Positions 21,918 through 49,544 of a stretch of DNA of 64,000 bases are shown here, piece by piece (position 1 is the first letter of the stretch; the number at the start of each line of letters is the position of its first letter). The notes beneath the pieces were generated by a model, which saw nothing but the letters and a program-made list of their open reading frames with translations, ran no database searches and was not told the DNA's origin. The stretch is from Escherichia coli (GTDB lineage Bacteria > Pseudomonadota > Gammaproteobacteria > Enterobacterales > Enterobacteriaceae): NCBI RefSeq assembly GCF_050920415.1, contig NZ_CP169309.1; one strand, given 5' to 3'. Position numbers and translations under genes: made by a program.

Positions 21918-23250
<1,333 letters not shown>

Positions 23251-23268
23251 AACTTAGTTCGTTTTAAA

Positions 23269-23296
23269 GATTCTGCAGACACTGTCTGCAGAATTC
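23269..23296. repeat. Palindromic unit GATTCTGCAGAC-ACT-GTCTGCAGAATTC (fourth copy of the yhcG-internal repeat family), between convergent nanQ and yhcG
   Basis: Near-perfect 12-13 bp inverted arms around CAGAC-ACT-GTCTG; same core as repeats at 24031-24135. Confidence 0.75.
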
Positions 23297-23309
23297 GAAA
23301 CCGCTGAAA

Positions 23310-24437
23310 TTAACGGCGTCTATAGCCTTCCTCTAGCACCGCTTGTGTTCGAACGAGTTCATCCGCGAGTCGTTTTTCATCAGGTAGTTGCATCTTATAT
23401 TCGCTTGCCAGAACGGTGTTAGGCAAACCAGCCAGTGCATAATGTGCTTCTCCGACTCCTTTTTCTGCACAGAGAACCAGACCGATGGGCGGATTTTCAT
23501 CCGGTAGCGTCCAGTGCTCTTTGGCGTAGTTGAGATACATATTCATCTGTCCGGCATCGCTATAGCTGAATTTGCCCACTTTTAGATCGACGATTAGCAG
23601 GCAGCGTAAACGGCGGTGGAAAAACAGCAGATCGACACGAAACCAGTTGTCATCAATGCGTAACCTTCGCTGTCGACCAACAAAGGCAAAATCATCCCCA
23701 AGTTCCAGCATGAAATCCATCAGGTGGTTGATCAGCGCCTCCTCAAAATCGGATTCTGAGTATTCATCTTTCAATTCCAAAAATTCGAGCACAAAGGGAT
23801 CGCGTATCGCCTGTTGCGGAAGAATATGCGTCTCGGCAGGGGCGTGTTGTTGCAGCATGGCTGATTTGTCATATGACAGTAGTGTCCGCTCATAAAATTG
23901 GGTCGCAATTTGCCGCTCTAGCTGGCGGACAGACCAACCACAGCGGAGCGCCTCTTTTTCATAAAAGCTGCGGGCGTCAGCGTTTTTAACGGAAAGTAGA
24001 CGGACGTAGGTGGACCAGGGCAGTGGGAAGGATTTGGCAGACAGCGTCTGCCAAATCTTTGCCGATGGGAATTCTGCAGACGGTGTCTGCGGAATTCCCA
24101 ATGGTGTTAATTCGCCAGACACTGTCTGGCGAATTTCAACATGTTGAAAAAAGAGGTAAAAAAGCCTCATTTGGCGTAAGTTTTTTGCAGAGAACCCACG
24201 CTTATACCTTAGACTTAAATCCTTTGAGAGCCGTTTGATAAGCTGTGCACCATAAGCCGCTCTGGCCTCGCCGCCTTGTTCAAATTCGACAATCCGTCGA
24301 CCAATTTCCCAGTATGTCGCGGTCATTAACGCGTTAACGCTACGTACCGTTTCCGTGCGGGCGCTATCGACCAGGTGAATAATACCGTCGTGGATTTGCT
24401 GGTAGCCTGCTGTGGTTCCTTCTGAGAGCGATTCCAT
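23310..24437 (-). CDS. yhcG: DUF1016/YhcG-family protein with C-terminal PD-(D/E)xK nuclease-like motifs
   Basis: 375-aa ORF; C-terminal ...RIDDNWFRVDLLFF...LLIVDLKVGKF resembles a PD-(D/E)xK core; contains in-frame tandem repeats (IRQTVSGELTPLG / IPQTPSAEFPSAK / IWQTLSAKSFPLPW). Confidence 0.85.
   Translation of the reverse strand: MESLSEGTTAGYQQIHDGIIHLVDSARTETVRSVNALMTATYWEIGRRIVEFEQGGEARAAYGAQLIKRLSKDLSLRYKRGFSAKNLRQMRLFYLFFQHVEIRQTVSGELTPLGIPQTPSAEFPSAKIWQTLSAKSFPLPWSTYVRLLSVKNADARSFYEKEALRCGWSVRQLERQIATQFYERTLLSYDKSAMLQQHAPAETHILPQQAIRDPFVLEFLELKDEYSESDFEEALINHLMDFMLELGDDFAFVGRQRRLRIDDNWFRVDLLFFHRRLRCLLIVDLKVGKFSYSDAGQMNMYLNYAKEHWTLPDENPPIGLVLCAEKGVGEAHYALAGLPNTVLASEYKMQLPDEKRLADELVRTQAVLEEGYRRR
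24031..24135. repeat. Three tandem 39-bp-spaced palindromic repeats inside yhcG coding sequence
   Basis: Units GATTTGGCAGACAGCGTCTGCCAAATC (24031-24057), GGGAATTCTGCAGACGGTGTCTGCGGAATTCCC (24068-24099), AATTCGCCAGACACTGTCTGGCGAATT (24109-24135); period 39 bp = 13 codons. Confidence 0.8.
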
Positions 24438-24635
24438 TATCTGTCCCTTTATATGGCGCTGCGTTGAATAATGGGATCAGCTATACGCCGGGCATCTGCC
24501 GGTAACAATCCAGGTGGGCTTGTTACATGGGTTTTCTTCACGTTATGCGAGGCGCTTTCCAGCAATTGTGCTGTAACGTTGTGCTGAAGATGAAGCAAAT
24601 AAAAAGGCCGGAGCGGGCGCATCCGACCAGAATTT

Positions 24636-25805
24636 TCAGGAAGTTTCTCTTGCTGTCACTACGCCATTTTGCGCAGCCCACAGATTCACATCTTCCTTAC
24701 GAATGGCGGCGGCCATCATGCCGGGGAATAAATCAGGGGTACAGGCAAAGGAGGGAATACCCATGGCGGCGAGTTTTCCTGCCAGTGACCGGTCGTAAAA
24801 CGGTGCGCCTTCGTCGCTTAAGGCCAGCAGGGTAACCACCTGTACGCCGGACTGAATCAACTCACTGGCGCGTTGCAACAGATTGCGTTCCACACCACCT
24901 TCGTAGAGGTCGGAAATCAGCACCAGAATGGTATTACGCGGATCGCGAATCAAAGACTGGCAGTAACCTACCGCGCGGTTGATGTCGGTGCCGCCGCCCA
25001 GCTGCACGCCAAACAGCAGCTCTACCGGATCGTCGAGCTTCTCTGTCATATCAACCACTGCGGTGTCGAAAACCACCAGATGCGTTTTTACCGCCGGGAG
25101 CGATGCCATTACTGCGCCAAAAATACTGGAATAGACCACCGAGGAGGCCATCGACCCACTCTGGTCGATACATAAAATGATCTCCTTTTGCGTGCGTTGA
25201 GACTTGCGCCCGTAGCCGATTAACGTTTCAGGAACAATACTTTTGTACTCTTCCTGCCAGTGGCGCAGGTTGGCGCGAATGGTGCGCTGCCAGTCAATTT
25301 CCGCGTGGCGCGGGCGACGATTACGTACCGCACGATTAAGAGCGCCGCTTACCGCGCTACGCATTGGCTCTTCAAGCTGTTTCATCAATTGCTCGACAAC
25401 TTTACGCACCACAATCCTGGCGGTTTCTTTGGTTTTGGCCGGAATTACGCCATTCAGCGACATCAGCGTGGAGACCAGATGAACATCAGGCTGGACGTTT
25501 GCCAGCATCTCTGGCTCCAGCAACATACTGTGCAAATTAAGACGTTCAAAGGCGTCTTTTTGCATCACCTGAACCACAGAAGAGGGGAAATACTGGCGAA
25601 TATCACCCAGCCAGCGAGCGACTTTGGGTGACGATCCACCCGTGCCGCCGCGTAATCCATGTTTACCGTCTGGCTGATAGAGCGCCGCCAGCGCGGCATC
25701 AATCGCGGACTCTCTGGCATCCAGCGCCACGTTACAGGCATTGTCGGCATCTTCTCCAAGGATCAGACGCCAGCGGCGCAGCCGTTCCATCTCGTTACTC
25801 GACAT
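24636..25805 (-). CDS. von Willebrand factor A (vWA) domain protein with MIDAS motif; YehP-like
   Basis: 389-aa ORF; DxSxS MIDAS motif in ILCIDQSGSM; last gene of the five-gene operon; overlaps upstream gene by 11 nt; SD-like GGGAA before ATG. Confidence 0.8.
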   Translation of the reverse strand: MSSNEMERLRRWRLILGEDADNACNVALDARESAIDAALAALYQPDGKHGLRGGTGGSSPKVARWLGDIRQYFPSSVVQVMQKDAFERLNLHSMLLEPEMLANVQPDVHLVSTLMSLNGVIPAKTKETARIVVRKVVEQLMKQLEEPMRSAVSGALNRAVRNRRPRHAEIDWQRTIRANLRHWQEEYKSIVPETLIGYGRKSQRTQKEIILCIDQSGSMASSVVYSSIFGAVMASLPAVKTHLVVFDTAVVDMTEKLDDPVELLFGVQLGGGTDINRAVGYCQSLIRDPRNTILVLISDLYEGGVERNLLQRASELIQSGVQVVTLLALSDEGAPFYDRSLAGKLAAMGIPSFACTPDLFPGMMAAAIRKEDVNLWAAQNGVVTARETS

Positions 25806-28044
25806 GATTTTCCCTTTCGTGTGGTGGCAAAGCCAGAATGCGGCGCAGTAGCGGCAGCATTAACGCGGCACGCTGTTCATCCCATATACCGCTGGTCTCT
25901 TCTTGCTGCGCGACACGCTCGCCCTGCGCGGCGCGTTCGCCTAACTGGCGGCGTTCCGGGCTGGAAAAACGGCCGAATGTCCGCCGCAGCATCGGCAGGA
26001 TCCGGGTGAAGTGATTGTCGTTCAGGCCGCTTAGCCAGGCATCGATCAACTGCCATAATTCGCTATTGTGCAGTAGCACCATCGCGCTGTCGTTGAGGAA
26101 ACCTTCCGCCCATGCGGCACTTTCCGCCGGGGGATTGGCTGGCGATAGCGCCAGGTTCATCAGCGTGGTGATCCGTTCTGTCGTTAACGTTTGCAGATCA
26201 AACAACAGGCGCGTCGCCGTTCCGCGAAGCAGCGCGTGTGCGGTACTGCCCTCTGCCAGCACCATCAACGCCTGCAACCAGCCCGCCAACAGATCTTCGT
26301 TATCCAGCAACCGCAGCGCGGCGTGAGCGTCGATAACTTTTTCTCTCATACTGGCGGCGCTGTCGTCGTTGAGCGCCGAACAGGCACCGGGTAGGGCGAT
26401 GGCGGCGCGCGGGGCGAGGCTCATCAGTACCTGCATTACCATACCAGAGTCGGTCTGGCGCACGTTGCCGTAGCGGACAATCGCCACCAGCGGTGCCAGG
26501 GCTTCCAGCAACTGTTCGATATTGCCCTGAGTGGCAGCCAGTGATTCCAGTGTATTGGCGATGGGGGCAATCGCGGCCTGTAAATCGGCCAGTAGCACTT
26601 GTTGGATAAGCTTTGCCAGTTCCGGCAGCGTGCTGGCGTATTGCGCCCTCACAATGGCATAGCGGGAGCTGGCCTGCTCAATGCTGTTACCCCAACGGCT
26701 GGCGGTAATGATGTTCATTGCCAGTGCCGGTTCCCAGCGCAGCGACCAGACTTCGTGGAACGTCCCTTTGCTGTTATTTCCTTGTCCAGCCAGACGGCCC
26801 CAGGAAATGTCGAGTAAGGTCAGGCGATGCAGTAAATGGCTACGCGCCAGATCGCCGGGTTTGCGCAGATCAAGATCCAGCACTTTTTCGCTGGCTTCTG
26901 CCTTCAGGCGCAGCGTTTTTTGCTGTTGCGTAATGTCGCGTTGGAGCGGCACGACGGGCGTATCATCCGGTACGCTTCCCAGCGCGTCGCCGACAATTAA
27001 CTTCTGGCGAATCATCTGCATTGGCGCGCTTTCGCCCATACACACTACGGTTTGCAGCGCTTCGCAAAGTTCGTCAAGCCCCGGCTGCGGGTGATGGCGC
27101 ATAATCGCCAGCGTCTGCGCCAGCCGCGCCGCTTCGATAATGTGGGCGCTGGAACAGTCGAGATCGGCTTCGCGAAACAGCCTTGCCGCGCGTGACAGCC
27201 AGCCGATATCGCGGTGAGAAGCGCCCTGATAACGCCACAGATGATCGTACCATTCCGGTGACACCACCCCTGCGCCATAACCGCTGGCGCGGCTTAACGC
27301 CTCGTAGCTCCAGGGCGTCCAGGCTGCCGCGACCTTGCACTTCGGCAAATTTTTCAGCAGTTCGTTATCATTCTTTGCGGGCGGCAGGTTTTCCAGCGCC
27401 GGAACGTGCCACGCACCGCAGACTACCGCGATGCGCGAGAAGCCCTCTTTTTTCGCCTGACGTAGCGTCTTGCGCATATACGCTTCACGCAGTTGATCTC
27501 TGGCTGAGTTTCGGGCTTCGGGAGTTGCCTGGCGTAGGGCAATCATCGCCTCGCGAATCGCCTCGAACAGAGACAAATCATCTTCGCGTTCCTCTACTCT
27601 GTGGCTCCACCAGCTTTCCCCATCGGTGTAACCGGCGGCGCGGCCCAGCCAGTCCAGCGGATCGCCGTCGGGACTGGCTTCAACGGCATCATCGTCATCG
27701 CTCTCTTTTTCGTCATCAAGCGCGAACTGATGACTGATGGGCAAGTCCATAAAGCGCACGGCGATATTTTGCTCAAAACCATAGCGCAGCGCCTGCCATT
27801 CCGGGGAGAACGCCGCAAAGGGGTAAAACGCGGCGTGATGTGAGTCGTCCGGGGCATAAATCAGTAGCGCGACCGGCGGTTGCATCTGTTCATGCTGCAT
27901 GAAAGGCAGGATGGATTCGCCGTCGGGCGGCCCTTCCACCAGCAGGCAGTCGGGCTGTAGCGTCTCCAGCGCCTTTCGCAGGCTGCGCGCGCAGCCAGGG
28001 CCATGGTGACGGATGCCAAACAAATGAACGGTTTGTTCAGTCAT
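25795..28044 (-). CDS. Large uncharacterised protein (749 aa) with N-terminal TraB/PrgY/GumN (TIKI)-like motifs; YehM-like by size and position
   Basis: N-terminal VHLFGIRHHGPG...DCLLVEGPPD and later RIAVVCGAWHVPAL resemble the two conserved motif blocks of the TraB/TIKI family; long helical C-terminal region; domain call from motif recognition only. Confidence 0.7.
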   Translation of the reverse strand: MTEQTVHLFGIRHHGPGCARSLRKALETLQPDCLLVEGPPDGESILPFMQHEQMQPPVALLIYAPDDSHHAAFYPFAAFSPEWQALRYGFEQNIAVRFMDLPISHQFALDDEKESDDDDAVEASPDGDPLDWLGRAAGYTDGESWWSHRVEEREDDLSLFEAIREAMIALRQATPEARNSARDQLREAYMRKTLRQAKKEGFSRIAVVCGAWHVPALENLPPAKNDNELLKNLPKCKVAAAWTPWSYEALSRASGYGAGVVSPEWYDHLWRYQGASHRDIGWLSRAARLFREADLDCSSAHIIEAARLAQTLAIMRHHPQPGLDELCEALQTVVCMGESAPMQMIRQKLIVGDALGSVPDDTPVVPLQRDITQQQKTLRLKAEASEKVLDLDLRKPGDLARSHLLHRLTLLDISWGRLAGQGNNSKGTFHEVWSLRWEPALAMNIITASRWGNSIEQASSRYAIVRAQYASTLPELAKLIQQVLLADLQAAIAPIANTLESLAATQGNIEQLLEALAPLVAIVRYGNVRQTDSGMVMQVLMSLAPRAAIALPGACSALNDDSAASMREKVIDAHAALRLLDNEDLLAGWLQALMVLAEGSTAHALLRGTATRLLFDLQTLTTERITTLMNLALSPANPPAESAAWAEGFLNDSAMVLLHNSELWQLIDAWLSGLNDNHFTRILPMLRRTFGRFSSPERRQLGERAAQGERVAQQEETSGIWDEQRAALMLPLLRRILALPPHERENHVE

Positions 28045-28061
28045 AGTGGTTGCCTTGCTGA

Positions 28062-29156
28062 TTACACAATTTCGCGGCAGGCGCGATAGAGATCGTTCCA
28101 GTCGCTGCGCTCTTTGACGATAGTTTCCAGATATTCACGCCATACCACGTCGTCCTGCACGGGATCTTTTACCACCGCGCCGATAAGGCTTGCGGCGATA
28201 TCCCGCGGATGCAGCACGCCGTCGCCAAAATGGCCCGCCAGCGCCATACCGTTGTTGATAACGGAGATCGCCTCCGCGGTGCTGAGAGTACTGGTTGGCG
28301 ACTTAATTTTCGTTTTGCCGTCAACCGTCAGGCCGTTTCGCAGTTCGCGGAAGATTTGCACGACTCGCTGGATCTCTTTAAGCGCTGGCGGTTTGGCAGG
28401 AAGTGCCAGCGCCTGACCCAGTTCGGCGACGCGGCGAGTGACAATGTTAATCTCTTCTTCTTCGCTGGCGGGTACGGGCAAAATGACCGTGTTGAAACGA
28501 CGTTTAAGCGCGGAAGAAAGCTCGTTAACGCCTTTATCCCGGTTGTTGGCGGTGGCGATAACGTTAAAGCCGCGCGTCGCCTGGACCTCTTCATTCAGTT
28601 CGGGGATAGGCAGCGTTTTTTCCGACAGGATCGTGATCAGCGTGTCCTGAACATCAGCAGGAATACGCGTCAGCTCTTCTACGCGTGCAATCTGCCCGCG
28701 CGCCATCGCCCGCATCAACGGACTTTCTACCAGCGCCAAACGTGACGGACCTTTAGAGAGCAACTCCGCGTAGTTCCAGCCATAACGCATTTGTTCTTCA
28801 CCGGTGCCTGCGGTGCCCTGAATAATTAACGTTGAGTCGCCGCTGATGGCAGCCGCCAGATGTTCAGATACCCAGGATTTCGCAGTGCCGGGTACGCCAT
28901 ACAACAGCAGTGCGCGATCGGTTGGCAGCGTGGCAACGGCGGTTTCGATAATCCGCCGGTTGCCGATATATTTCGGCGTGACCTCAAAGCCATTTTCCAG
29001 CTGCCCGCCCAACAGATAGGTGGCGACGGACCATGGAGAAATGGCCCAGTTTTCCGGGCGCGGATGAGTATCGTTTTTTTGCAGCTCATCCAGTTCTTCA
29101 GCAAATTGTTGTTCGGCATGTCGGCGTAAAACGGCGGCAGTAGCGGTAGCATTCAT
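28062..29156 (-). CDS. MoxR-type AAA+ ATPase (YehL-like)
   Basis: 364-aa ORF; Walker A GVPGTAKS; sensor-1-like FNVIATANNRD; ATGA overlap with upstream gene. Confidence 0.82.
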   Translation of the reverse strand: MNATATAAVLRRHAEQQFAEELDELQKNDTHPRPENWAISPWSVATYLLGGQLENGFEVTPKYIGNRRIIETAVATLPTDRALLLYGVPGTAKSWVSEHLAAAISGDSTLIIQGTAGTGEEQMRYGWNYAELLSKGPSRLALVESPLMRAMARGQIARVEELTRIPADVQDTLITILSEKTLPIPELNEEVQATRGFNVIATANNRDKGVNELSSALKRRFNTVILPVPASEEEEINIVTRRVAELGQALALPAKPPALKEIQRVVQIFRELRNGLTVDGKTKIKSPTSTLSTAEAISVINNGMALAGHFGDGVLHPRDIAASLIGAVVKDPVQDDVVWREYLETIVKERSDWNDLYRACREIV

Positions 29157-30757
29157 AAAGTGGTTTCTCCGACAAAAAGCGAATTAAGTTGAATTCGGTT
29201 CGCCAGCGCGGCGCTCAGGGCAGTAAAGGCTGCCTCGCAATAAGGCGTTTGTTGTGCGTCGTGCGGCCACTTGTCAATGACATCATTGAGGACTTCGGGG
29301 GCCAGCAGGCAGGCGAAATCACTCATCACATGGCGCAGGGCGTAGTCAAAGCGCGCGGAATCATATTTCACCCAACGGTGTAGCTCCGTGACCATTTGCT
29401 GGCTCAGGCGCAGGCTAAAGAGCGACGCATCCAGCGGTAACAGGCTGATGTAGCGATGTAAATGTTCGCCGCCCACCACTGAGAACAATGACCGTAACAT
29501 CGGCTCGTGTTCTTCTACAGGCAGACATTGCAAAAGCTCAAAGGCGTTAATCTTCACGCCTGCAGGATGATGAATGCTCATTCCGACGGGCAGCATGGCG
29601 AGAAACGCCTGCGCCCACTGCGGATTTTTTTCGCGCAGTACGGCGTGATACCAGGCGCGCAGTAGCGCCTTCTGCCAGTCGGTTTTCCCGGCCCAGCGCA
29701 GCAGTTCAACGGGGGTAGCCTGCAGTTGCGTTTGCCACCAGTCGAGCGGAACCGCTGCAACTATCTGATACAGCCACCATGCGCGCTGGCCCAACTTTTC
29801 GCCTTTGGGCTTAGTTTCTTCCAGCGCATCGGCCTTCCACTCTGGTAAGAACGCCTCCGGGGCATCAAGGGCGACGTGCAGCATTTTTTCTTTGCCGGAT
29901 AAGCCTTTTAGCCTTTCAAGTAAGGTCTCAGGAGCGGGGGATGAACTGAGCAACGGCGCTAACCGAGACTTCATGCGCGAGATCCAGGCGCTTTCCGGCA
30001 GACAACACAGTAACCGTGCCGCAGTTTGCCGCACCTCTTTGCTGCGATCGGATAATGTCTGTTCCAGAAAGGCTTCGTCGTGTTGGGAGATCTCCACTTC
30101 CAGCACAGCCAGCAGCTGTGCGCGTTCGCGGGCATCCAGCGAACTCATCTCCTGCGCCAGCCGATCGCGACCCTGTTCCGGGGCGCGAATGCGCATTTGC
30201 GTCAGATATTGCAGACGCTGTTCGGACGTGCCGTGCAGCCACATTTCTTCATCCAGCGGAGCGTCAACGGAGGCAAGAAAATAGCGCCAGTCGGCGTTAA
30301 TTTGCGCCAGCCAGCGCCCGCGAGCGCCGAGGACATTGGGCAGAATGCCGCGTATTGATGGATTTTGTACGCCGTAATTCAGCAGTGCCGGTAACAGCAG
30401 GGGCGGAGAAAGAAGCTGACGCTGGACCAGGTGATCAAGCGCTGACCACAGTAAACGCGGCGGCCCTTCTGCCAGCAACAGATGCAGCAGTCCCGCAAAA
30501 GCCGGGTTGTTTATTGGCTCGGCATTTTCTTTATCGATTTCCGGCAGCGGTGCGGGGTCAATCGCCTGCGGCACCCAGCCAGCCAGATGGCAGAGCGCCA
30601 GAACGCCCGCCGAGCGCAGTAGCTGTTGCTCTGCGGATGTGTTATTCGCCAGTTCAGACAGTAACAGCCCAATCTCACTTTGCGACGCCGACGGTGTGAA
30701 CGCTTTTTTGTCTGTGCCGAGTAGCGCTGTGCGGGTTAAATTTTGCCATTCGTTCAT
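29153..30757 (-). CDS. Uncharacterised protein (about 534 aa), helical, no recognised catalytic motif
   Basis: Long ORF (ORF track 29153-30778); preferred start ATG at 30757, which has GGAGG 7 nt upstream and forms an ATGA overlap with the stop of the SWIM gene. Confidence 0.7.
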   Translation of the reverse strand: MNEWQNLTRTALLGTDKKAFTPSASQSEIGLLLSELANNTSAEQQLLRSAGVLALCHLAGWVPQAIDPAPLPEIDKENAEPINNPAFAGLLHLLLAEGPPRLLWSALDHLVQRQLLSPPLLLPALLNYGVQNPSIRGILPNVLGARGRWLAQINADWRYFLASVDAPLDEEMWLHGTSEQRLQYLTQMRIRAPEQGRDRLAQEMSSLDARERAQLLAVLEVEISQHDEAFLEQTLSDRSKEVRQTAARLLCCLPESAWISRMKSRLAPLLSSSPAPETLLERLKGLSGKEKMLHVALDAPEAFLPEWKADALEETKPKGEKLGQRAWWLYQIVAAVPLDWWQTQLQATPVELLRWAGKTDWQKALLRAWYHAVLREKNPQWAQAFLAMLPVGMSIHHPAGVKINAFELLQCLPVEEHEPMLRSLFSVVGGEHLHRYISLLPLDASLFSLRLSQQMVTELHRWVKYDSARFDYALRHVMSDFACLLAPEVLNDVIDKWPHDAQQTPYCEAAFTALSAALANRIQLNSLFVGETTL

Positions 30758-32076
30758 TGTGCGCCTCCGGTTGCCCAAATCACGCTACCGGCAAGCCAGG
30801 CGCTACAGGGCGTCAGCTGCTGACCATCCCATTCCCCCATTAGCATAAACGGCGCGCCGCCGCTGGCCGCCAGTAACCGCCAACCCTCGTCCGACGACAG
30901 GTGCGTCGGTAAGTGCTGGCCCTGTGTCGAGACGAATCGCCAGCCGCTCTCGTGCGGGTAAATCAATATTTCGCTTACTCGCAGCGGCAGAGGCCATTGC
31001 CAGGGATTCGCGCTAAGCCGCTGCGCCATGTCATGCAGCGCGTCCGGGAGGGGTAATTCTGCAAGCGGGAATCTTTCACCGCGGGTAAACGGCTCCACAA
31101 TCCGCGCCCGTAGCGGTGATGCGCCAGGGAAAAAGGCAAGCGCGCCCTGGCAGACTTGCCCGGTGATAAAGTGCTGGGGAAAGTTTTTACCACCGTGTGA
31201 ATAGTCCAGCAGTAGCGCGGTGCGGTGGCTCTTTTCTCCGTACAGCCAGACCCGGCGTCGCCACAGATTATTCTCTTCTTGCGCGCTTTGGCCTAAGACC
31301 TGCCAGTTATCAAGGCAGGTTAGTCCGTCAGCGATGTCATGTTTATCCGGGGTTATTCCCAATGCTGCATGGAGATCGCTAAGTTGTGCCGGGGATAACA
31401 TTTGTTGCTGGCGCCAGGCGTCAATAATCAGCTGTAGCTGCCCCAGTTCTTTGCACAGGCTCGATGGCCATACCTCGGCGGTAGTAAAAAGAGTGGTCAG
31501 ATTGTTCAGGCGAGCGGCAATTCCCGGTAGTTGAGCGTCGACCATGCGGGCGGCGATCCCGGCAAAAGGCAACTGTTGTGCAGAGATCTGCGCCAGACCG
31601 TGGCGGATCAGGTCGTGCATCCACTGTTCGAGGAAATCCAGCCCCGCCGTCATTTTTTGGTTGCGTGCCGCTTCCCGTTTGGCGGCAGCCTGCGGGTCGG
31701 CAGCTTTTGCCTCAGCCTGCTCTTTCTTTTCTTCTTTGCGAACCGCTCGCTGCTGGCGCGAGGTTAGCCACTCGCTTACCCATTCCGGCGGCTCGCCAGC
31801 GGTGAAACTTGCGGTGTGTTGCACCTGGAGCAAAAGCAACGCAAGGCTATGTTTACAGGGGAATTTACGGCTGGGGCAGGAACATTTACAGGCCAGATCC
31901 TGCCTGTCGACCCGTACCTGATAAGGGCGGGAGCCGCTGCCTTTACATTCTCCCCAGAACGCGGTCTCGCTATATCCCAGCGTCGGCCATTTTGCGGGGG
32001 CAACCAGGCCACGAGCCGCTTTAACCGAGGCGTCATCGGGCGCCAGGGCTTGCACTGATTCAACGGTCAGTTCCAT
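30754..32076 (-). CDS. SWIM zinc-finger domain protein (YehQ-like), first gene of operon
   Basis: 440-aa ORF; CxCxnCxH signature in DLACKCSCPSRKFPCKHSLALL; remainder unrecognised. Confidence 0.75.
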   Translation of the reverse strand: MELTVESVQALAPDDASVKAARGLVAPAKWPTLGYSETAFWGECKGSGSRPYQVRVDRQDLACKCSCPSRKFPCKHSLALLLLQVQHTASFTAGEPPEWVSEWLTSRQQRAVRKEEKKEQAEAKAADPQAAAKREAARNQKMTAGLDFLEQWMHDLIRHGLAQISAQQLPFAGIAARMVDAQLPGIAARLNNLTTLFTTAEVWPSSLCKELGQLQLIIDAWRQQQMLSPAQLSDLHAALGITPDKHDIADGLTCLDNWQVLGQSAQEENNLWRRRVWLYGEKSHRTALLLDYSHGGKNFPQHFITGQVCQGALAFFPGASPLRARIVEPFTRGERFPLAELPLPDALHDMAQRLSANPWQWPLPLRVSEILIYPHESGWRFVSTQGQHLPTHLSSDEGWRLLAASGGAPFMLMGEWDGQQLTPCSAWLAGSVIWATGGAQ

Positions 32077-32239
32077 TACAATTCTCTATTGGCGTGGGGA
32101 AATCGATGGGGTCAAGGAGGCGTTAAGCAAAGCAGGAGGAGACTGTTTTCCGTAACAGCGTATTGCGCGTCCATCGCAAATTTGTAGTGAGTATAGCGGG
32201 CGGTAAATTCAGGAAACAATGGCGGATAGCGGAAAGTGT

Positions 32240-32298
32240 AGTTTTTCGGAAAAAGATAACTTTATCCCGTGTAACCCGTTTTAAGCGGGCTACACGGG
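32240..32298 (-). terminator. Putative terminator downstream of gltD
   Basis: Minus-strand hairpin CCCGTGTAGCCCGCTTAAAACGGGTTACACGGG 8 nt after gltD stop, followed after a spacer by a T5 run; U-tract not directly adjacent. Confidence 0.4.
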
Positions 32299-32308
32299 AG
32301 GCTGCAAT

Positions 32309-33739
<1,431 letters not shown>

Positions 33740-48986: not shown

Positions 48987-49544
48987 TTAATTACCCTTCT
49001 TCTGTGCCGGGGTCTGGCCTTTGTTGTTTTTGTCCTGCAGCTGCGACGGCACCAGAACGGTGGTTACGCGCTTGCCTTTGTCGCTGAACGCCTGCATTTT
49101 CTGCTCTTTCACCAGGTAAGTGATCTTATCACCCTTAATGTTGCTATCGACCTGCTGCAGATAAGCATTACCCGTCAGAACGACAAAATCTTTTGCCAGT
49201 TCGTAGTGCATCTGGGAAGCGTGACCTTCAACGGGTTTACCGTTGTCCTGCATCTGGTAGAACGTTGCCGGTTTACCGTAGCCGTCAATCACTTCTTTAC
49301 CTTGTTCGCCGCCCGGACGGGTAACGACCACTTTGTCGGCATTAATTTTGATGGTGCCCTGGGTGACGATGACATTACCGGTAAAGGTAACCACGTTGCC
49401 TTGCATATCAAGAGATTGCTGGTCCGATTCAATGTGGATCGGCTGATCAGTGTCTCCGGTTACGGCAAATGCCGGAATGCTGGCGGCCAGAAGTGAGCTG
49501 GCAAGCACAAGATTAAGGCTGAGTTTGTTTGTTTTGAATTTCAT
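48987..49544 (-). CDS. lptA: LPS transport periplasmic protein LptA
   Basis: 185-aa ORF from MKFKTNKLSLNLVLASSLLAASIPAFA (signal peptide); the ORF track extends to 49565. Confidence 0.95.
   Translation of the reverse strand: MKFKTNKLSLNLVLASSLLAASIPAFAVTGDTDQPIHIESDQQSLDMQGNVVTFTGNVIVTQGTIKINADKVVVTRPGGEQGKEVIDGYGKPATFYQMQDNGKPVEGHASQMHYELAKDFVVLTGNAYLQQVDSNIKGDKITYLVKEQKMQAFSDKGKRVTTVLVPSQLQDKNNKGQTPAQKKGN

Follow-up and report, generated by a model that had tools for sequence, protein, structure and literature searches.

The DNA analysed here is a stretch of 64,000 nucleotides (nt) from the Escherichia coli contig NZ_CP169309.1 (hereafter the window), which carries between gltD and yhcG a cassette of five tightly packed genes for a SWIM zinc-finger protein, a DUF5691 protein, an AAA+ ATPase, a DUF5682 protein and a VWA protein. 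The cassette is a horizontally acquired accessory island. In our view, the whole is best, and with fair probability, explained as an acquired operon with partial reinitiation coupling between neighbouring genes, the products of which would form an ATP-driven MoxR/VWA remodelling cassette. The tight packing is found again in related cassettes of other phyla at two of the junctions.

Layout of the cassette and its start codons

All five genes are located on the minus strand in the order SWIM, DUF5691, AAA+, DUF5682 and VWA, and the sites and hairpins described below in and around the cassette are on the same strand. The first gene (30754–32076) encodes the SWIM zinc-finger protein of 440 residues. 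It is followed by the gene of the DUF5691 protein (29153–30757, 534 residues), which the original prediction listed as an unknown gene, and by that of the AAA+ ATPase (28062–29156, 364 residues), assigned to the AAA_5/MoxR type and the YehL subfamily. The fourth gene (25795–28044) encodes the DUF5682 protein of 749 residues. The last gene (24636–25805) encodes a CoxE-like VWA protein of 389 residues with a metal ion-dependent adhesion site (MIDAS) motif.

Three of the four junctions in the cassette are stop/start overlaps (−4, −4 and −11), and the remaining one is a gap of 17 nt. The SWIM and DUF5691 genes share an ATGA (30754–30757), in which the DUF5691 ATG occupies 30757–30755 and the SWIM TGA 30756–30754. 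The same arrangement joins the DUF5691 and AAA+ genes (29153–29156; ATG 29156–29154, TGA 29155–29153), and both sites read tcat on the plus strand. The original prediction had proposed these two ATGA overlaps. The sequence bears out the AAA+ start at 29156, and ATG 30757 is supported as the DUF5691 start by the sequence, the annotation and the N-terminal conservation together. The 11-nt overlap that it described between the end of the 749-residue gene and the VWA start is present as well (25795–25805). The AAA+–DUF5682 junction did not figure in it; here, a 17-nt spacer (28045–28061) separates the AAA+ stop at 28062 from the DUF5682 ATG at 28044 and offers only a weak AAGG (−3.0 kcal/mol).

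At all three overlapping junctions, a Shine-Dalgarno (SD) motif is situated inside the upstream open reading frame at a functional spacing. The GGAGG foreseen upstream of ATG 30757 is found within the SWIM coding end (30768–30764), separated from the ATG by a 6-nt spacer (30763–30758). Its predicted duplex with the anti-SD sequence (−9.5 kcal/mol) is the strongest among the five cassette genes. The AAA+ ATG is preceded at a spacing of 9 nt by an SD-like GGAGA (29166–29170, −6.6 kcal/mol), and the VWA ATG at a spacing of 4 nt by an SD-like AAGGGAA (25810–25816, −5.3 kcal/mol).

The five start codons appear well supported by the RefSeq annotation and by N-terminal conservation, the VWA start being the one soft spot. 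Exactly these starts are given by the Prokaryotic Genome Annotation Pipeline (PGAP) in the 100%-identical RefSeq record NZ_CP169399.1 (E. coli MFDS1022581). The AAA+ gene has no alternative in-frame start from the upstream stop to codon 40, and the SWIM N-terminus (MELTVESVQALAPD) agrees with the consensus of the SWIM family. It is very improbable that starts were misassigned, with DUF5691 beginning at TTG 30778 (a 25-nt overlap) or VWA at ATG 25790 (a +4 gap). TTG 30778, seven codons upstream of ATG 30757, is the sole alternative for DUF5691 and the first start in its open frame. However, the GGAGG 6 nt before 30757 is within the seven codons that this start would add and, being downstream of the TTG, is unable to serve it. 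An alignment of 64 members of the family places the conserved DUF5691 motif L..ALLGT at residues 7–15 counted from ATG 30757, and residue 7 is also where the Pfam model starts.

For the VWA gene, ATG 25790 is located 5 codons inside, and its use would replace the −11 overlap with a +4 gap. Residues 1–8 of the VWA protein show no conservation and, because conserved sequence begins only at residue 9, conservation cannot settle this start. Against the internal ATG, the AAGGGAA is positioned upstream of ATG 25805, and −11 is the second commonest class at the DUF5682–VWA junction among relatives. PGAP selects 30757 and 25805 over the two alternatives, under either of which the genes would still overlap or sit 4 nt apart.

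The sequence supports the five genes as one compact same-strand unit, putatively transcribed as a single messenger. A consensus scan revealed no convincing internal minus-strand promoter in the cassette, and its only minus-strand terminator-like match there was a weak 5-bp stem within the VWA gene (24972–24959).

Conservation of the overlaps and possible translational coupling

Relatives of the cassette were collected by a DUF5682 profile scan of one genome per species, which gave 80 loci from Proteobacteria, Desulfovibrionales, Cyanobacteria, Chloroflexi, Bacteroidota, Planctomycetes, Verrucomicrobia, Armatimonadetes, Deinococcales and Victivallales. All five genes were found in the same order in 58 of these loci, representing at least eight phyla, with a median span of 7,478 nt in comparison with 7,441 nt here. 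Many of the remaining 22 are truncated contigs or failures of the start-finding script. Starts in the related loci were chosen heuristically by homology position, codon type and SD strength. With these starts, the SWIM and DUF5691 genes overlap in 41 of 61 loci (−4 in 25, −1 in 10) and the DUF5682 and VWA genes in 41 of 65 (−4 in 23, −11 in 10). The DUF5691–AAA+ junction overlaps in 20 of 64 loci (median spacing +10.5 nt) and the AAA+–DUF5682 junction in 6 of 63 (median +18 nt). Spacings of −8 to +6 nt account for 72% of the SWIM–DUF5691 junctions, 52% of the DUF5682–VWA junctions (72% at or below +6), 34% of the DUF5691–AAA+ junctions and 24% of the AAA+–DUF5682 junctions, the baseline of the E. 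coli genome being 24%. The E. coli pattern mirrors that of the family at three junctions, the exception being the DUF5691–AAA+ overlap. As for individual loci, two scaffolds of one Desertivirga brevis assembly (L031 and L032) hold cassette copies with identical locus coordinates, either a duplication or an assembly duplicate.

Termination–reinitiation coupling is plausible at the three overlapping junctions, judging from their geometry and SD sites. A ribosome ending at the SWIM, DUF5691 or DUF5682 stop would reinitiate at the overlapping start, and the SD sites embedded in the upstream coding ends would assist this, most strongly at DUF5691. In E. coli reporters carrying −4 overlaps, termination–reinitiation was found in four of five native pairs, and removal of the SD usually lowered it (PMC6728339). 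Reinitiation declines steeply with distance (PMC10666635). The +17-nt gap between the AAA+ and DUF5682 genes falls in the range of declining reinitiation, and coupling would therefore probably be interrupted midway along the operon; DUF5682, behind this gap and a weak SD, would be initiated mostly independently. Since the SWIM–DUF5691 and DUF5682–VWA junctions are those most often overlapping in relatives, each of these pairs would be co-produced from the same translating ribosomes.

The original prediction went further and proposed co-translation and near-stoichiometric production, which it regarded as consistent with a multi-protein complex. Co-translation is plausible at the −4 and −11 overlaps and their SD sites, while the AAA+–DUF5682 gap is outside this class. 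Near-stoichiometric production does not follow from the overlaps. For the amounts to be equal, reinitiation would have to be about 100% (PMC6728339), which makes an equimolar claim unjustified; the expression of neighbours would be tied together without equal amounts resulting. Where MoxR/VWA partners have been measured, they were unequal, with about 350 RavA and 90 ViaA per cell (PMC3893208), and the stoichiometry of such partners varies from system to system (PMC7159879). A multi-protein complex of the cassette products is a reasonable proposal that fits the literature, where genes for heteromeric complexes are statistically enriched in short overlaps (PMC10666635).

It is also conceivable, though unlikely, that the overlaps reflect incidental compaction. 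Starts and stops would then simply have drifted to −4 or −1, the genes would be initiated mainly independently at their own SD sites, and the overlaps would say nothing of a complex or of stoichiometry. In E. coli, ATGA is found more often than any other spacing, with 707 of 2,987 unidirectional pairs (24%) within −8 to +6 nt (PMC10666635). The rest of the window has the same character. It contains 42 further same-strand neighbour pairs, of which 7 overlap, the overlap being exactly 4 nt in five cases (nanE/K, nanK/Q, elbB/mtgA, npr/rapZ and lptC/kdsC), and 20 of the 42 are spaced by 20 nt or less. The overlaps of the cassette are accordingly real yet commonplace, and its starts were already annotated in this way. 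The arrangement GGAGG-N4-9-ATG is not enriched in the window either (7 found, 8.4 expected by chance), and three of the seven stand at annotated starts, those of sspA, DUF5691 and gltB. Among the window's core-genome operons, which provide an internal baseline, lptA–lptC (49513–49544) and mlaC–mlaB overlap as well.

Several further points weigh against coupling and in favour of incidental compaction. The GGAGG before DUF5691 is strong enough for independent initiation. Local folding showed the ribosome-binding regions to be partly paired (mean unpaired probability 0.41–0.69), with no sequestration of the kind that would enforce coupling. With these regions 41–69% unpaired, independent initiation can contribute at each of the junctions, above all at the GGAGG. 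One of the five E. coli overlaps tested, bioBF, was uncoupled and initiated de novo (PMC6728339). At the DUF5691–AAA+ junction, the family does not conserve the overlap (31% of loci). At the two conserved overlaps, SD-like sites were found outside Bacteroidota at 71% and 60% in comparison with a background of 10%, an enrichment that is partly circular because SD strength entered the choice of starts.

The comparison with relatives argues in the opposite direction. Across phyla, some two thirds of the cassettes overlap at the two conserved junctions, Bacteroidota included; there, the chosen starts have almost no SD-like sequence and initiation would consequently not be SD-driven. The DUF5682–VWA overlap furthermore recurs in the yeh paralogue, which is only 27–37% identical, and the reporter experiments cited above demonstrated coupling in four of the five native −4 pairs tested. 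Partial coupling remains the reading that we prefer.

The coupling signal in itself adds little, for ATGA with an embedded SD is the commonest operon junction in E. coli. Its use is rather in prediction: the junctions overlapped across phyla, and that of DUF5682 with VWA also in yeh, predict the pairs SWIM with DUF5691 and DUF5682 with VWA to be made together and possibly to bind each other. The more useful result is the cassette itself, a widespread five-gene YehL-type MoxR–VWA module of fixed order whose function is uncharacterised.

The acquired island and its proteins

The island of about 7.7 kb (24566–32308) is inserted between gltD (32309–33727) and yhcG (23310–24437). Of 5,426 complete E. 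coli genomes, 33 (0.6%) carry it, always at this one site, and SMS-3-5 is among them. Its guanine-plus-cytosine content is 57.7% as against 51% in the outer flanks; the adjacent gltBD genes are similar to it (56.6%). At the gltD–yhcG site, the K-12 map has gltF–yhcADEF, from which it follows that this strain lacks gltF. No conserved flanking genes were found around more than 60 related cassettes, and the cassette therefore appears self-contained.

The site is a variable hot spot. SMS-3-5 has a pair of small hypothetical genes at this position, and in one other strain examined, a transposase gene accompanies a truncated yhcG. On the minus strand, the island is immediately followed by yhcG, which encodes a protein with DUF1016_N and YhcG_C domains, the latter a PDDEXK nuclease. 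This protein was matched in PADLOC to the candidate defence family PDC-S02 (E 2.5e-135), and its gene is reduced to a pseudogene fragment in island carriers of the SMS-3-5 type.

The ends of the island hold several candidate signals. Just past the VWA stop, a terminator-like hairpin (GGUCGGA...UCCGGCC) with UUUUUAUUU was found at 24597–24628 and is probably the 3' end of the operon; the folding energy of this region has a z score of only −1.85. The consensus scan missed the hairpin, probably because its 7-bp stem encloses 9 nt and the scan admits loops of up to 8 nt. Right after the gltD stop, between gltBD and the cassette, there is a perfect 14-bp hairpin (32265–32299) with a folding energy of −27 kcal/mol and a z score of −5.25, which may terminate or stabilise the gltBD mRNA. 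The 232-nt gltD–SWIM spacer containing it had no megablast match in genomes without the island, and the hairpin may thus have come with the island. In the same spacer, the weak sequence TTGTTT–18 nt–TATACT (32190–32219), noticed by eye and falling under the threshold of the consensus scan, is a speculative candidate for the cassette promoter. An Rfam scan of positions 23000–33000 yielded no RNA family.

The five proteins belong to the Pfam families SWIM, DUF5691, AAA_5, DUF5682 and VWA_CoxE; NCBIfam gave no family-level names for them. By its sequence, the AAA+ protein (AAA_5, E 1e-38) is a MoxR ATPase of the YehL subfamily with intact nucleotide-binding motifs and a VWA partner in the same operon, one gene away. 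It is 41% identical to K-12 YehL over 350 residues (E 7e-78). Its best sequence matches among solved structures are the AAA domains of midasin (E 1e-16), with NorQ at E 2e-5, and the models of GvpN, MadB and NorQ matched it only weakly. Conservation across 70 sequences was seen for the motifs GxPGTAKS, R.EELTR (with its EE) and LkRRF, which we interpret as Walker A, Walker B and the arginine-finger region. YehL is one of seven MoxR subfamilies, and MoxR genes are typically paired with a VWA gene (PMC3893208). In the cassette, the VWA protein (VWA_CoxE, E 3e-52) is 37% identical to YehP. Its DQSGS (DxSxS, invariant), GGGTD and DL.EGG, read as MIDAS residues, are conserved in 70 sequences.

The AAA+ gene varies among the carriers of the island. 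The island alignment has a gap of about 300 nt in 2 of the 33 carrier genomes, EC17CM2 and e1-39 (hit H43). In EC17CM2 (L088, 4949–5746), the AAA+ gene measures 798 nt in place of 1095 nt, which is 99 codons shorter and fits an in-frame deletion; neither the ATGA overlap nor any other part of the cassette is affected. The alignment gap and the product name in e1-39 are as in EC17CM2. The shortened AAA+ protein may be an inactivated motor.

The five proteins differ in their rates of change. The median identity of relatives to the E. coli proteins is 72% for AAA+, 62% for VWA, 46% for DUF5682, 37% for SWIM and 30% for DUF5691, and the AAA+ protein is 67–81% identical across phyla. The DUF5691 protein matches PF18944 (E 4e-121) from residue 7. 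Its conserved segment DRS..VR..A..LL..LP is read as HEAT-like, and a sub-threshold Pfam HEAT match was found at residues 230–251. Relaxed Pfam scans of the two DUF5682 halves, the SWIM C-terminal region and DUF5691 produced only sub-threshold HEAT-like matches. A relationship of DUF5691 to DUF4132/YehI was rejected at an hhalign probability of 10.8%, and one to DUF5682 at a profile-comparison probability of 0.2%. The SWIM family is collinear with the YehQ profile over the first ~85 residues, yet this match was not significant and was set aside.

The DUF5682 protein is 27% identical to K-12 YehM and belongs to a family of 4,445 clusters at 50% identity (E≤1e-3). Its AlphaFold2 model is confident (predicted local distance difference test, pLDDT, 90.4) and consists of an N-terminal alpha/beta domain (residues ~1–260) and a long helical domain of ~480 residues. 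There are two GxxH motifs in the N-terminal domain, GIRHHGPG, which follows strand 1, and CGAWH, which follows a later strand, together with the invariant E37, E82 and D100. In 62–67 DUF5682 sequences, G10-x-x-H13(H14), E37, E82 and G210-x-x-H213 vary little or not at all. The two GxxH motifs with invariant glutamates resemble the site of the TIKI/TraB/PrgY/ChaN/erythromycin-esterase superfamily; the TIKI enzymes have a site of two histidines and two glutamates (PMC6254334), and the layout of GSIH, VEAD and GALH in TraB/YbaP parallels that of the DUF5682 motifs. It is reasonable, though unproven, to regard the DUF5682 N-terminal domain as a TIKI/TraB-like hydrolase domain by these motifs. In contrast to that superfamily, the domain is fused to the helical domain and encoded in a MoxR–VWA operon.

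The searches for a direct match speak against this assignment. Foldseek of DUF5682 against the PDB gave nothing at E≤1e-3, and the sequence profile had no real match among solved structures. Sub-threshold Pfam matches to PF01963 and PF04187 of the Tiki clan were found in just 3 of 67 DUF5682 members. The hhalign comparison of the N-terminal domain with YbaP/TraB aligned the motifs at a probability of 0.6% (E 0.095), and it is a weak test because the YbaP profile is narrow (effective number of sequences, Neff, 1.9).

A DUF5682 gene without detectable SWIM, DUF5691, AAA+ or VWA neighbours was observed at three related loci (L022, L054 and L069) despite ample flanking sequence. The protein consequently occurs outside the cassette, or its partners are encoded elsewhere. 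The family is large and has neither a characterised member nor an entry in defence databases. The His/Glu hydrolase hypothesis would provide an entry point to both the cassette and K-12 yehLMPQ.

Proposed function and comparison with known systems

In the proposed mechanism, the AAA+ protein, presumably a hexamer, and the VWA/MIDAS protein would form an ATP-driven remodelling pair as in RavA–ViaA, NorQ–NorD and midasin. This pair would remodel or activate a complex of the other three cassette proteins, including DUF5682. The latter is the candidate catalytic subunit, a putative hydrolase of the TIKI/TraB/ChaN type with its conserved His/Glu residues, and SWIM and DUF5691, which evolve faster, are candidates for subunits that serve as a scaffold or recognise the target. 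A bolder version, which we consider doubtful and advance only tentatively, is a distinct horizontally spreading ATP-driven machine in which a midasin-like MoxR/VWA pair gates a TIKI/TraB-like DUF5682, and a ZSWIM8-like SWIM protein and DUF5691 choose the target. If true, bacteria would possess a hitherto undescribed kind of targeted-processing or conflict system, and the two conserved overlaps would mark the sub-complexes SWIM with DUF5691 and DUF5682 with VWA. A literature search found no paper mentioning DUF5682 or DUF5691 and nothing useful on PF18934, PF18944, yehLMPQ or DUF4132.

A further alternative, which seems quite improbable to us, is an anti-phage or conflict system in which MoxR–VWA licenses a toxic DUF5682 hydrolase on infection, as opposed to a housekeeping machine of maturation or remodelling. 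The island is a rare and patchy accessory element at a variable site, adjoining a nuclease gene that matches a PADLOC candidate; the cassette is self-contained, with no conserved neighbour as a possible client; and its SWIM and DUF5691 proteins evolve fastest. MoxR–vWA pairs are, moreover, the cores of predicted conflict systems (PMC7159879). The searches of defence families are at odds with such a role. No PADLOC match was obtained for any of the five proteins in the PADLOC-DB v2 scan beyond a marginal match of the AAA+ P-loop region to IetA (E 0.0017), the other four giving none at all. The 110 immediate neighbours of related cassettes showed no clear enrichment in defence genes, the matches being generic (methyltransferase-like, cysteine desulfurase-like and AAA). 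The DUF5682 searches of phages and plasmids retrieved a single phage contig, which is dubious, and 44 plasmids or chromids, most of them large, so that the cassette is nearly missing from phage records and uncommon on plasmids. Its fixed architecture and gene order and its high conservation are the opposite of the effector variability that defines conflict systems. A conflict role of the cassette is possible but unsupported; it is the rare hot-spot location next to yhcG that keeps it so.

The MoxR–vWA ternary conflict systems of Kaur et al. 2020 share with the cassette a MoxR and vWA core, extra conserved partners and a mobile neighbourhood (PMC7159879). None of their third components (VMAP, iSTAND, FtsH or beta-propeller) was found in the cassette by Pfam scans, and the bpMoxR match was below threshold (19.7 vs 27 bits). 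Unlike these systems, the cassette has no variable effector domains, and its architecture is invariant across 58 loci. Its assignment as a ternary system of this kind was rejected because the defining third component and variable effectors are missing.

The remodelling reading leads instead to the characterised MoxR/VWA pairs. The clients of RavA–ViaA, NorQ–NorD and CbbQ–CbbO are respiratory complexes, nitric oxide reductase and Rubisco. These systems are likewise operon-encoded pairs of an AAA+ and a VWA/MIDAS protein acting in chaperone-like remodelling (PMC3893208). Their ATPases belong to other MoxR subfamilies than that of the cassette which, in contrast to them, has no linked client gene and three extra conserved proteins.

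In midasin (Rea1), the logic of AAA_5 and MIDAS is as in the cassette, where it is split over two genes. Midasin has six fused AAA domains and acts in ribosome biogenesis. Unlike the cassette, it is a single polypeptide of about 4,800–4,900 residues.

For the junctions, the comparable cases are hyfHI, astDB, ydbH/ynbE as well as menDH, which are likewise co-directional with a −4 or −1 overlap and an SD inside the upstream gene (PMC6728339, PMC10666635). These were coupled in reporter tests, whereas coupling at the junctions of the cassette is predicted from sequence.

The closest known system is K-12 yehLMPQ, itself uncharacterised and located elsewhere on the K-12 chromosome than the cassette site. 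It shares the order AAA+, DUF5682 and VWA, with the 41%, 27% and 37% identities given above. It also has a SWIM protein (YehQ, 614 residues), but yehQ is the last gene while the SWIM gene of the cassette is the first, and the two proteins are similar only around the SWIM motif. The yeh junctions measure +10 (yehL/yehM), −8 (yehM/yehP) and −4 (yehP/yehQ), in comparison with +17 for AAA+–DUF5682 and −11 for DUF5682–VWA in the cassette. Where the cassette has DUF5691, the yeh locus has DUF4132 (YehI) and YehK upstream. In three Bacteroidota loci (L042, 12396–15335; L046, 12479–15130; L067, 12119–15094), a DUF4132 gene of the YehI/MolR-like type directly follows the VWA gene, which links the cassette to this other component of the K-12 yeh locus.

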